A stretch of 64,000 bases of DNA from positions 97,433 to 161,432 of the forward strand of contig NZ_JAIQDD010000010.1 in assembly GCF_020036995.1 (NCBI RefSeq). Reading direction: 5' to 3'. Below, piece after piece: positions 19,965 to 23,428 of the stretch (its first letter is position 1; each line of letters opens with the position of its first letter). Origin of the DNA: Corallococcus sp. AS-1-12 (GTDB lineage Bacteria; Myxococcota; Myxococcia; Myxococcales; Myxococcaceae). The position numbers and the translations under genes are program-made. The notes beneath the pieces are model-generated. The model worked only from the letters and a program-made list of their open reading frames with translations. It searched no databases and was not told the origin of the DNA.

Positions 19965-20972
19965 ATGCGCAAGAAGATTGGTGAACTCCTCGTCCAGGCC
20001 GGAGTGGTGACGGACGAGCAGGTGAAGCAGGCCCTCGCGTCCGGACGGCGCGGCCAGGGCCGCAAGCTGGGTGAGGTGCTGGTGTCCATGGGCCTGTGCA
20101 CGGGCCGGGACATCGCGCGGGCGCTGGCGGCGCAGCACGAGCTGCCGTTCGTGGAGATCCCCGAGTACATCCCCCATGCGGTGTCCTCGCTGGTGTCCAT
20201 GGACTTCCAGACCGAGCACCGGGTGCTCCTCTTCGCGGCGGAGCAGGACGGCCGCAGCGAGAAGATCCACGTCGCGGTGGAGGACCCGGGCAACCTGATG
20301 CTGGTGGACGAGCTGCGCTTCCAGCTTCGCAAGCCGCTGAAGGTGTTCGTCGCCGCGCCGGATGACCTGGAGCAGGCGTTGTCGCGCGGCCGGGGCGAGC
20401 CCCTGGACATCGTGGAGGCTGAACCGATGGACATGGACGAGGACGATTCGCCGGACATCCTGACGTCTCCGCCGCCCCCGCCCGCCGCCGCGCGCGCGCC
20501 CACGCCGCCGCGTCCGCCCGCGCCGGCGCTGGACTGGGACCTGCCGCCGCCGCCGCCCAACGAGTCGGGCGTGGACGGCGCGGAGGTGCTGGAGGACATC
20601 CTGGGCTCCACGCCCCGTCCCAAGGTCCCCAAGGCCCCGCGTCCGCCGCCCCCGCCCGCCGCGGCCCGTCCGCCGCCGCCTCCGCCCCCCGCGGAGCCGG
20701 AGGACCCGAGCAAGCCGCGCGTCCCGGTGGTGCTCTTCGGCGGCGCCGCGCAGGGCGTGAAGCCGTCCGTGGCGCTCACGCCCAAGCCGGACTTCTCCGA
20801 GGAGGACCTGGCGGTGCTGGACGACATCGACCGCATCTCGCGCGGCGAAGAGGCCAGCCTGGACACGGAGAAGGTGAAGCCCGCGCGCATGGTCGCGAGC
20901 CTCATCCGCCTGCTCATCCGCAAGGGGCTCATCCAGGAGGCGGAGTTCCTGGAGGAGCTGGCCCAGAAGTGA
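19965..20972 (+). CDS. MshEN / GspE-N-terminal domain protein with Pro-rich linker (paralog)
   Basis: [24 protein letters not shown]...[24 protein letters not shown]. Conserved C-terminal helix shared with the upstream paralog ([13 protein letters not shown] versus LIEKGVFSREEYL). Confidence 0.75.
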
Positions 20973-22000
20973 CCGGCGCCGCGCCGTCCCCCGGGGCCTC
21001 CACCGGCGCCCCGCTCCTGGACGTGCGGGGGCTCGTCACCCAGTTGTCGCTCCCCCGCGGCACGGTGCGCGCGGTGGACGGGGTGTCCTTCTCCGTTCCC
21101 CCCGGCGGCACGCTGGGGGTGGTGGGGGAGAGCGGCTGCGGCAAGAGCCTCACGGCGCTGTCGGTGATGCGGCTGGTCCCCCAGCCGCCCGGCCGCGTGG
21201 TGGGCGGCGAGGTGCGCTTCCGGGGCGAGGACCTGCTGGCCCTCCCGGAGAAGCAGATGCGGCGCGTGCGCGGCCGGCACGTGGCCATGGTCTTCCAGGA
21301 GCCCATGACGTCGCTCAACCCGGTGTTCACCGTGGGCGAGCAGATTGGCGAGGGCGTCCGGCTGCACCTGGGCGCCACGAAGGCCCAGGCGCGTGAGCGC
21401 GCGGTGGAGATGCTCCGGCAGGTGGGCATCCCAGCGCCCGGCGAGCGCGTGGACGCGTACCCGCACCAGCTCTCCGGCGGCATGCGCCAGCGCGTGATGA
21501 TCGCCATGGCGCTCGCGTGCGACCCGGCGCTGCTCATCGCGGACGAGCCCACCACGGCGCTGGACGTCACCATCCAGGCCCAGATTCTCGAACTGCTCAA
21601 GCGCCTGCAGGCCGAGCGCAACATGGCGGTGATGCTCATCACCCACGACCTGGGCGTGGTGGCGGGGAGCTGCGACGCGGTGGTGGTGATGTACGCGGGC
21701 CGCATCGTGGAGCAGGCCCCGGTGCGCGAGCTGTTCGCGCGGCCCGCGCACCCGTACACGGCGGGCCTGTTGCGCTCCATCCCGTCGCTGCACGACGCGG
21801 GCGCGGCGGTGGAGGGCGGACGTCAGCGCCTGAAGGCCATTCCCGGCATGGTGCCGTCGCTCACCGCGCTGCCGTCCGGGTGCGCGTTCCGCGACCGCTG
21901 CGACCGCGCCACGGAGCTGTGCGCCCGCGTCACGCCCGCGCTGGAGCCGAAGCGCGGAGGCCAGTCCGCCGCCTGCCATCATCCGGTGCCCGCGCCATGA
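20969..22000 (+). CDS. ABC transporter ATP-binding protein, OppD/DppD-like
   Basis: Walker A (GESGCGKS), signature (LSGGMRQR), Walker B ([12 protein letters not shown]), C-terminal oligopeptide-type extension. GTGA overlap with the upstream gene. Confidence 0.85.
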
Positions 22001-23052
22001 GCGAGCCGCTGGTCCAGGTGCGCGACCTGAAGGTGCACTTCCCGGTGAAGGGCGGCCTGCTGGGCCGCACGCGCGGCACGGTGCGCGCGGTGGACGGCGT
22101 GTCCTTCGACGTCGCCCGGGGCGAGACGCTGGGCCTGGTGGGGGAGAGCGGCTGCGGCAAGAGCACCCTGGGGCGCGCGGTGCTGCGCCTCATCGACCCG
22201 ACCTCCGGCTCCATCCGCGTGGCCGGGCGCGAGCTGACCGGCCTGTCGCAGCGCGAGCTGCGTCCGCTGCGCCGCCAGATGCAGCTCGTCTTCCAGGACC
22301 CGTACGCGTCGCTCAACCCGCGCATGACGGTGGGGGACATCCTCGCGGAGCCCTTCGCCATCCACGGCCTGGCGAAGGGCAGGGCGCGCGAGGACGAGGT
22401 GCTGGCGCTGCTCGACGCCATGGGGCTGCCCCGCGAGGCGCGCCAGCGCTACCCGCACGAGTTCTCCGGCGGCCAGCGTCAACGCATTGGCATTGCACGT
22501 GCCATCGCGTTGCGTCCAGACCTGGTGGTGGCGGATGAGCCCATCAGCGCGCTGGACGTCTCCATCCAGGCGCAGATCGTCAACCTGCTGGTGGACCTGC
22601 AGCGCGAGCGCGGCCTCACCTACGTCTTCATCGCGCACGACCTGAAGATCGTCGAGTACGTGTCCACGCGCGTGGCGGTGATGTACCTGGGGCGCATCGT
22701 GGAGGTGGCGCCGTCGCGGGCGCTGTACGCCGGGCCTCGCCACCCGTACACGCAGGCCCTGCTGTCCGCGGTGCCGGTGCCGGATCCGGAGCGCCCCGGC
22801 ACGCGCCTGCTGCTGCCGGGAGAGCCGCCTTCGCCCCTGTCGCCGCCGTCCGGTTGCGCGTTCCATCCGCGCTGCCCGCATGCGATGGAGCGCTGCCGCC
22901 GCGAGTCACCGCCGCTGTATCCCCTGGGCGGTGGCCACGCCGCGGCGTGCTTCCTGGCCGAAGGGGATTCGCGCGACGTACAGGACGGGCCCGCCGTTTC
23001 CGCGTCCGGAGGAGGTGCCGGTGTTCTGGCTCAGCCATCATCACGCGGATGA
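21997..23052 (+). CDS. ABC transporter ATP-binding protein, OppF/DppF-like
   Basis: Walker A (GESGCGKST), signature (FSGGQRQR), Walker B ([12 protein letters not shown]). ATGA overlap with the OppD-like gene. Confidence 0.85.
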
Positions 23053-23428
23053 GTACAACCGCACGTACGTGCTCGCGGGCGTGCGCGTGTGCGCGCGGTG
23101 CCTGGGCACGTACCCGGTGCTCGCGGGCGTGTTCCTCGCGTTGTTCGCGCTGAAGGCGCCGCTGCGGTGGGAGTGGGACGTGCCGGCGGTGCTGGCCCTC
23201 ACGCTGCCCGCGCTCGTGGACTGGGCGGTGGGACGCTTCCGGCCCGCTTCGGGTTCCAACGCGGTGCGCACGCTGACGGGCGTCCTGCTGGGAGTGGGGC
23301 TCGGCCGCTCGCTGTACGTGCATGTGCAGCGCCCGTTGCCGGCGGTGCTGCTGGCGCAGGCACTTCTGGTGACAGGGGTGGCGGTCCCTGTCATTCTCGC
23401 CACTTACCGGCGGCCACGGCCGGAATAG
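23021..23428 (+). CDS. DUF2085-like small membrane protein
   Basis: CARCLGTYP motif typical of DUF2085. 3-4 TM helices. GGAGGAGG RBS 5 nt upstream of GTG 23021. Confidence 0.5.

Follow-up and report, generated by a model that had tools for sequence, protein, structure and literature searches.

What keeps the two ATPases of a peptide importer intact when neither a permease nor a binding protein is encoded alongside them? The question is posed by a 64,000-nucleotide (nt) stretch of Corallococcus sp. AS-1-12 (contig NZ_JAIQDD010000010.1, positions 97,433 to 161,432; hereafter the window, with a G+C content of ~72% across it), which carries on its plus strand the genes of an OppD/DppD-type ATP-binding cassette (ABC) ATPase of 343 amino acids (aa) at 20969–22000 and of an OppF/DppF-type ABC ATPase of 351 aa at 21997–23052. 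Our preferred account, to which we give about an even chance of being correct, is that OppD and OppF are the surviving ATPase half of an Opp/Dpp-family importer and that they now most probably serve a paralogous Opp/Dpp-type permease whose genes lie elsewhere. The evolutionary part of this account, i.e., that the locus is a deletion derivative of a complete operon whose ATPases have been kept under selection, is well supported. The proteins themselves are ordinary, and the interest of the locus is evolutionary and regulatory: the ATPase half of an importer has outlived its channel across a group of predatory bacteria, and the pair has stayed joined to two cyclic di-GMP (c-di-GMP)-receptor-like genes, directly 5' of the sigma/anti-sigma genes that head kil cluster II.

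A canonical pair of importer ATPases

Judged by their sequences, the two proteins look like canonical peptide-importer ATPases and not a new kind of enzyme. All six ABC motifs (Walker A, Q-loop, signature, Walker B, D-loop and H-loop) are found in each, with Walker A at residue 53, the Q-loop FQEP at 109, the signature LSGGM at 168, Walker B at 187 and the H-loop at 224 of OppD, and with Walker A at 49, FQDP at 99, FSGGQ at 156, Walker B at 176 and the H-loop at 212 of OppF. The Pfam ABC_tran domain scores 102 and 115 bits in the two ATPases (in the 1e-29 range for OppD), and the C-terminal extensions of oligopeptide/dipeptide type that the original prediction, made from the bare sequence, had ascribed to both are indeed there as oligo_HPY domains (2e-18 in OppD and 4e-20 in OppF). 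Four cysteines in each protein (Cys305/311/318/336 of OppD and Cys287/293/300/318 of OppF), which are kept in all nine of the myxobacterial loci compared below, follow the spacing C-x5-C-x6-C-x17-C of the [4Fe-4S] ligands of Escherichia coli DppD, and substituting these Fe-S cysteines makes the E. coli DppBCDF complex fall apart (PMC12136057). From this spacing, both C-terminal domains are predicted to be of the [4Fe-4S] type.

The assignment of the two genes as D and F follows from their nearest relatives, the first product being closest to nucleotide-binding domain 1 (NBD1) of Mycobacterium tuberculosis (Mtb) OppD and to E. coli DppD/OppD and the second to NBD2 and to DppF/OppF. The closest solved structures are all importer ATPases (Mtb OppD 8J5Q, Mtb DppD 8WD9, E. 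coli DppD/DppF 8Z1V and OppD/OppF 8Z21). OppF passes the NCBIfam model NF008453 (413 bits against a cut-off of 408), and OppD stays under the NCBIfam equivalog cut-offs (370 against 541). OppD of the window is 100% identical to a database protein of Corallococcus sp. AS-1-12 and 97% identical to OppD of C. exercitus SDU142, an exact-sequence look-up gave no record for the OppF product, and a T2SSE/GspE domain is not present in either protein.

Search for a permease and a binding protein in the window

Genes were called from high third-position G+C (GC3; a composition filter on long open reading frames, ORFs), and the chosen ORFs were then scanned with Pfam; the scan covers the long high-GC3 ORFs throughout the 64 kb, with a few short inter-ORF gaps outside it. 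No BPD_transp_1, OppC_N or SBP_bac_5 domain was found in the ORFs scanned. A tblastn search of the window with OppA, OppB and OppC of a canonical operon gave no match in any frame, and the same search with OppA/B/C of the closest complete relatives, at E-values up to 10, revealed neither a match nor a pseudogene remnant. The statement that the pair stands in these 64 kb without OppB/OppC or a binding protein, with which the original prediction began, therefore holds.

The only other ABC membrane protein found in the window, an ABC-2 permease at 57367–58203, was considered as a partner of OppDF and rejected, as it has its own Wzt-type ATPase (58203–59510) and belongs to a different transporter type. 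The segments 57367–59510 and 61694–64000, with this Wzm-type ABC-2 permease, the Wzt ATPase with its Wzt_C domain and a family-2 glycosyltransferase, make up a polysaccharide export locus that is unrelated to OppDF.

A complete operon in relatives and its deletion

Nine myxobacterial loci were compared, of which six are of the orphan type and three (L082, L083 and L085, from deeper-branching relatives) are complete. The orphan order, ExbD, ExbB / DUF4292-MshEN-MshEN-OppD-OppF-DUF2085-extracytoplasmic function (ECF) sigma factor-anti-sigma factor, is shared by the window, C. exercitus, Hyalangium, Archangium, M. xanthus and an Archangium-like metagenome contig. The OppD proteins of the three complete loci are 71–74% identical to that of the window and have the same flanks, with ExbBD and DUF4292 upstream and kil genes downstream. 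The order in L082 and L083 is substrate-binding protein (SBP)-OppB-OppC-MshEN-MshEN-OppD-OppF-DUF2085-ECF sigma-anti-sigma-CpaB-TadB-TadC-FHA-XseA, and L085 is alike except that a single 1467-aa protein replaces the two MshEN genes and that TadE/TadG genes follow. In all three, DUF4292 is separated from the first MshEN gene by SBP_bac_5, OppB and OppC (~3.7 kb), where the window has a spacer of 59 nt (19147–19205), the deletion junction. The gene on its 5' side (18316–19146, plus strand; Pfam DUF4292, 6e-15) encodes a LolB-like lipoprotein that scores 47 bits with NCBIfam LolB1, below the cut-off of 50; it is a conserved upstream neighbor and precedes the SBP gene in the complete-operon relatives.

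The presence of a complete operon with the same flanks in L082, L083 and L085 argues that the complete state is ancestral and that the orphan pair is what a deletion has left. The ancestral locus was therefore a complete peptide-importer operon that already held the MshEN genes and DUF2085. A neighbor-joining tree of concatenated OppD and OppF (599 columns) groups all nine loci with 100% support in 500 bootstraps and, within them, the six orphan loci with 93%; the latter clade favors a single deletion, and the locus is most simply explained by one clean loss of SBP-oppB-oppC in the ancestor of Myxococcaceae and Archangiaceae.

The complete relatives offer some further observations. In L083, a murein endopeptidase-like gene (Peptidase_M74 and LysM; L083:2928–4316) lies between DUF4292 and the SBP gene, which hints that the ancestral importer handled cell-wall peptides. 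The 1467-aa ORF of L085 (L085:5555–9958) is MshEN-like only at its N-terminus (49% identity to the second MshEN protein of the window over ~145 aa), and the remainder is without a Pfam match. A locus from the Deltaproteobacteria metagenome-assembled genome Meg19_02_Bin_157 (L022:1–15700) runs from xseB-dxs to a weak DUF4292 match (9299–9631) followed by OppD-OppF-SBP5-OppB-OppC; DUF4292 and the xseB/dxs surroundings are as in the window, whereas the opp genes stand in another order and MshEN and DUF2085 are missing. An earlier stage of the locus may be preserved here.

Was the cognate permease lost or moved? As a test, we compared OppC of L083 with a collection of 5.8 billion proteins and took the best 120 relatives (97–48% identity). 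Among these there is no named protein of Myxococcus, Corallococcus, Archangium, Hyalangium or Cystobacter, and the named sources are metagenome bins carrying the label Myxococcaceae or Myxococcales, as well as Desulfosoma, Dadabacteria and the like. By contrast, the database search with OppD is dominated by Myxococcus, Corallococcus, Archangium, Hyalangium and Cystobacter. That OppD is abundant in the cultured genera in which OppC orthologs were not found argues that the cognate permease was lost and not relocated, although the OppC search speaks to close orthologs and not to distant paralogous Opp-type permeases.

Selection on the ATPases

The alignment of ATPase sequences took in ~100 members of the Myxococcaceae/Archangiaceae clades, 16 relatives that group with the complete loci (gene tables confirm the operon for three of them, and clustering suggests it for others) and 14 outgroups of other phyla, which comprise canonical opp operons as well as unlinked pairs; the orphan arrangement was seen directly in six loci of the ~100-sequence clades. 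The stretch from the Q-loop to the start of the helical subdomain, LSGGMRQRV, Walker B with the D-loop, the H-loop and the four cysteines are invariant or nearly so in this alignment. In importers, the first of these stretches makes contact with the coupling helix of the permease. Only four OppD sites that are fixed in complete-operon and outgroup sequences are altered in an orphan clade (26 F>L, 61 V>L, and 75 and 120 F>Y). The pairwise ratio of nonsynonymous to synonymous substitution rates (dN/dS) among orphan-type genomes is 0.12–0.32 for oppD and 0.11–0.23 for oppF, within the range of the adjacent genes, and no frameshifts or stops were found in the ATPase genes.

OppD and OppF thus appear free of any sign of decay or remodelling. 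Since the pair is under purifying selection across genera that lack the original permease, it must work with some other partner. The original prediction had proposed a co-opted ATPase dimer, and the part of that idea which calls for a different partner stands on this ground, while its suggestion of a new role finds no counterpart in the sequences, with changes at only four of the OppD sites that complete-operon and outgroup sequences conserve.

Unlinked OppDF pairs in other phyla

With OppD as the query, 77 loci of other phyla were recovered at 55–64% identity, 35 of them with full 10-kb flanks on both sides. In 19 of these 35 there is no OppB, OppC or SBP5 match within 10 kb, so an unlinked OppDF pair is not rare and its bare observation is less surprising. 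The Dehalococcoidia loci L050 and L055 have SBP and permease genes 6–8 kb downstream of the pair. The myxobacterial pair lies outside both the Dehalococcoidia-type group and the Yip1-linked group described next; its membership of the Yip1-linked clade was considered and rejected, as it forms a clade of its own.

In Acidobacteria and two Heliobacteria loci, the gene for a membrane protein with a Yip1 domain (PF04893) comes after an OppD-OppF pair that has no OppB, OppC or SBP within 10 kb, and the ATPases of these loci make up their own clade (L004, L005, L007, L008, L009, L014, L018, L019, L026, L029, L031, L037, L038, L041, L046, L054 and L076; for example, L007:9791–13468 and L005:9998–18261). 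The acidobacterial members have HlyD, a small ABC ATPase and MacB/FtsX (and in part OEP) alongside, resembling B. subtilis YknWXYZ; in the Heliobacteria loci, a neighbor of HlyD or FtsX type was not detected by similarity to the acidobacterial genes. OppDF-Yip1 may be an undescribed system. In a further five loci, from Methylomirabilota, Rokubacteria and Deferrimicrobiaceae bins (L010, L012, L021, L025 and L056), a beta-eliminating lyase gene (PF01212) always precedes the unlinked OppD-OppF.

Close packing of the pair with MshEN and DUF2085 genes

The pair is embedded in a run of closely packed genes on the plus strand. Both MshEN genes lie directly upstream, the first (MshEN_1, 249 aa; Pfam MshEN 5e-15) at 19206–19955 and the second (MshEN_2, 335 aa; 5e-13) at 19965–20972. 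The stop of MshEN_2 overlaps the start of oppD by 4 nt in GTGA (20969–20972), and the stop of oppD overlaps the start of oppF in ATGA (21997–22000), both of which can be read in the sequence as the original prediction had it. It was also right in letting the DUF2085 gene begin within the last part of oppF: the GTG at 23021, with GGAGGAGG upstream at 23008–23015 as its Shine-Dalgarno sequence, is the likely start codon, and the gene read from it overlaps oppF (stop codon 23050–23052) by 32 nt and runs to a stop at 23428, the outer limit given in the original prediction. The resulting product of 135 aa (23021–23428; PF09858, 1.4e-9) matches the annotation in M. xanthus. The junctions are tighter in the orphan lineages than in the complete loci. 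Between MshEN_2 and oppD there is a 4-nt overlap in the window and in M. xanthus and a 5-nt gap in the Archangium-like locus L084, against gaps of ~40–100 nt in complete loci, and between oppF and DUF2085 the 32-nt overlap of the orphan lineages compares with gaps of 2–10 nt. No convincing terminator was found between the DUF4292 gene and the anti-sigma gene. The sole sigma-70-like promoter match in 17000–26200 is at 25992–26021 (TTGACA, an 18-nt spacer and TAACAT), just 5' of CpaB/KilB.

MshEN_1 has a 53-residue motif of c-di-GMP-binding type at residues 5–57 in addition to its MshEN domain, and MshEN_2 has such a motif at residues 4–57, an MshEN domain, a Pro-rich linker and a short C-terminal helix. 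Both pass NCBIfam NF053729, the curated c-di-GMP motif model (positions 1–53), with 64.8 and 58.5 bits against a cut-off of 38. A comparison by eye with the published definition, in which tandem 24-residue motifs form a 53-residue binding domain (PMC5013675), shows slight deviations: the turn Gly is replaced by Asn in both repeats of MshEN_1, and repeat 1 of MshEN_2 is without its final Gln. The two proteins look like c-di-GMP receptors, as a prediction from these matches; up to 22 MshEN genes have been reported in M. xanthus. The DUF2085 protein has about four hydrophobic segments and a His/Cys-rich N-terminal stretch. A gene of its size stands next to oppF in 9 of 9 myxobacterial loci, complete and orphan alike, and since the complete loci have it too, it is not a stand-in for the lost permease. 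No similarity was found between DUF2085 and the Yip1 proteins. The whole block from MshEN through OppD, OppF, DUF2085 and the ECF sigma factor to the anti-sigma factor is unbroken in the nine loci (with one MshEN-like ORF in L085) and abuts the kil genes.

Kil cluster II and the wider surroundings

Downstream of DUF2085 follow, all on the plus strand, an ECF sigma factor gene (23460–24140; Sigma70_r2 and Sigma70_r4_2, with NF009166 at 268 bits against a cut-off of 206), a zf-HC2 anti-sigma factor gene (24137–25558; Pfam zf-HC2) and a reduced kil cluster II (25577–33439). The latter consists of a KilK-like Flp pilin with the motif G/QAMVEY (25577–25879), KilB/CpaB (26112–26930), KilG and KilH (TadB/C; 27009–27854 and 27868–28758) and two FHA proteins (28832–31663 and 31664–33439). 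The published kil cluster II of the Tad-like contact-killing system of M. xanthus, MXAN_4648–4661, contains FHA-TPR, FHA, KilH, KilG, KilB, unknowns, KilK and minor pilins and has a "putative zinc-finger" as its last member (PMC8460266, Supplementary file 1). By position and domain (synteny with the M. xanthus locus L081), the anti-sigma gene at 24137–25558 is the counterpart of MXAN_4661. In L081, whose OppD is 79% identical to that of the window, the order is ExbD, ExbB / DUF4292-like, MshEN, MshEN, OppD, OppF, DUF2085, ECF sigma, zf-HC2, TadE/TadG/TadE, and the OppDF pair is thus positioned just outside the published kil cluster II, immediately upstream. No literature was found on MXAN_4662–4667, the inferred tags for this locus, and nothing useful on an oligopeptide permease or peptide ABC transporters of M. 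xanthus or on orphan OppD/OppF.

The composition of the cluster varies. The TadE/TadG/TadE minor-pilin block and its flanking unknowns (MXAN_4656–4660) are absent in Corallococcus (the window and L001), L082 and L083, where counterparts of MXAN_4653/4654 also appear to be missing; in the window, the KilK-like Flp gene is directly next to the anti-sigma gene and KilB follows. The block is present in Myxococcus, the Archangium-like L084 and L085, and probably, to judge by spacing, in Hyalangium (L002), which makes for a mosaic distribution.

Further out, the 5' side of the locus holds an acyl-CoA dehydrogenase gene (14863–17010) and ExbD and ExbB genes (17071–18273, minus strand), and xseA, xseB, a response regulator gene and dxs lie 3' of the FHA genes. 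At 46714–49644, a bactofilin gene is followed by a gene for a ParB_N-domain protein, a pair that we take to recall the bacNOP-padC region of M. xanthus and that would fit the chromosomal surroundings of kil cluster II.

Weighing the explanations

If the partner is a paralogous permease, OppD and OppF would still form an ATP-hydrolysing heterodimer with C-terminal domains of the [4Fe-4S] type, and this dimer would dock, via its unchanged groove between Q-loop and helical subdomain, on the coupling helices of a membrane partner. That partner would most probably be an Opp/Dpp-type permease encoded elsewhere, with the pair serving as trans-acting or shared ATPases, and the presumably co-transcribed MshEN proteins may modulate the dimer. 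We favor a paralogous permease because the docking region and the Fe-S domain are untouched, unlinked pairs are common and shared ATPases are known. Several points weigh against this account. The cognate permease seems to be lost rather than moved, and no Opp-type permease operon lacking ATPases has been shown in these genomes (whole myxobacterial genomes were not scanned). The tighter junctions and the persistent linkage to MshEN and DUF2085 would be explained no less well by a partner from within the operon than by one in trans, and the conservation around the Q-loop could partly stem from catalytic and not from docking constraint. Finally, a tree of OppD only (116 proteins) puts the complete-operon sequences beside Archangiaceae, which would require two losses instead of one.

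The linkage leads to a different explanation, possible though rather unlikely in our estimate, in which OppDF is a non-transport switch that, in an ATP-dependent and perhaps redox-dependent manner and together with MshEN and/or DUF2085, controls the ECF sigma/anti-sigma pair and hence the expression or assembly of kil cluster II. In its favor are the MshEN genes standing between oppC and oppD even in the complete operons of L082 and L083 (and the MshEN-like ORF of L085), the passing scores of both MshEN proteins with the c-di-GMP model, the unbroken block from MshEN to anti-sigma that abuts the kil genes in nine loci, and the failure to find an ortholog of the cognate permease in cultured genera among the best 120 OppC relatives; E. 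coli SapD, described below, is a precedent in acting on the non-ABC proteins TrkG/TrkH. Yet no signature of a new function is seen in the ATPases, whose docking region and Fe-S domain are as in the complete-operon relatives, synteny is generally conserved among these related genomes so that adjacency alone says little, MshEN or DUF2085 adjoins the pair in not one of the 77 OppDF loci of other phyla, and the literature search on MXAN_4662–4667 returned no experiment. The fully specified version, a c-di-GMP-gated, possibly redox-sensitive (Fe-S) and non-transporting OppDF/MshEN switch that is anchored by DUF2085 and controls the ECF sigma/anti-sigma pair and, through it, the Kil predation apparatus, is more doubtful still.

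It is also important to consider the membrane protein next door. That DUF2085 replaces OppBC as membrane anchor or channel of the ATPase dimer is suggested by its constant place as the next gene after oppF, by the overlap of its start with oppF in orphan lineages and by its being a membrane protein of an uncharacterised family (Pfam DUF2085), but we consider it improbable: DUF2085 is already 3' of oppF where OppB and OppC remain, and so did not arrive as a replacement, its 135 aa hold no recognisable coupling-helix region, it does not resemble the Yip1 proteins that follow orphan OppDF in other phyla, and it may equally belong with the downstream ECF sigma/anti-sigma genes. The original prediction had looked elsewhere, to an adjacent Tad-like module without an ATPase of its own that OppDF might energise. 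The pair does adjoin kil cluster II, and no CpaF/T2SSE-type ATPase is encoded in the window ORFs scanned. Platforms of type IV filaments are, however, driven by hexameric secretion ATPases and not by ABC dimers, OppD and OppF are canonical importer-type proteins, and oppDF with its own permease was already alongside the kil genes in L082, L083 and L085, before the permease was lost. In M. xanthus, the kil genes are divided over two loci: the module in question is cluster II, and cluster I contributes the motor, the CpaF-type ATPase KilF (MXAN_3107), on which both the polymerisation of KilP pili and killing depend (PMC8460266, PMC12075869). The lack of a pilus ATPase in the window is explained by this already, and we regard a role of OppDF as Kil motor as very improbable. 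Least probable of all, to the point of being nearly negligible, is that the ATPases no longer have a function and are remnants of the broken operon that will disappear in their turn; the cognate permease and SBP genes are gone, as this would have it, but the pair is intact with all motifs in every genus examined, with dN/dS of 0.11–0.32 and neither frameshifts nor stops.

If the preferred account of action in trans on another permease is true, the locus would exemplify ATPase sharing among peptide transporters, and if there is no such action, it would be one of an ABC ATPase dimer turned regulator beside the Kil machine. 

Comparison with known systems

With Kil cluster II of M. xanthus the window shares KilB, KilG, KilH, KilK, the FHA proteins and the MXAN_4661-like anti-sigma factor in the same order; it is in the genes outside the published cluster, OppDF, MshEN and DUF2085, none of them Tad components, that the locus goes beyond it. 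The solved Opp/Dpp importers (8J5Q, 8Z1V and 8Z21) likewise have D and F ATPases with ABC_tran and oligo_HPY domains, the catalytic motifs and the DppD-type cysteine spacing, whereas the window locus is without OppA/B/C genes, embeds two MshEN genes with the pair and places DUF2085 after it.

A peptide-transporter-family ATPase that acts on a non-cognate partner is exemplified by E. coli SapD (TrkE), an OppD-family protein that gives K+ uptake by TrkG/TrkH its ATP dependence, according to Harms et al. (2001) as cited in PMC9898762. SapD differs in that its sapABCDF operon is still complete; the window locus shows no link to Trk, and OppD of the window reaches 247 bits with the SapD model, against a cut-off of 627. 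Closest to what we propose for OppDF are the shared importer ATPases MsiK of Streptomyces and MsmX of Bacillus, whose genes lie away from the permease operons they energise. Those are single, homodimeric ATPases of the sugar (CUT1) family, whereas the pair of the window would be a D/F heterodimer of the peptide family.

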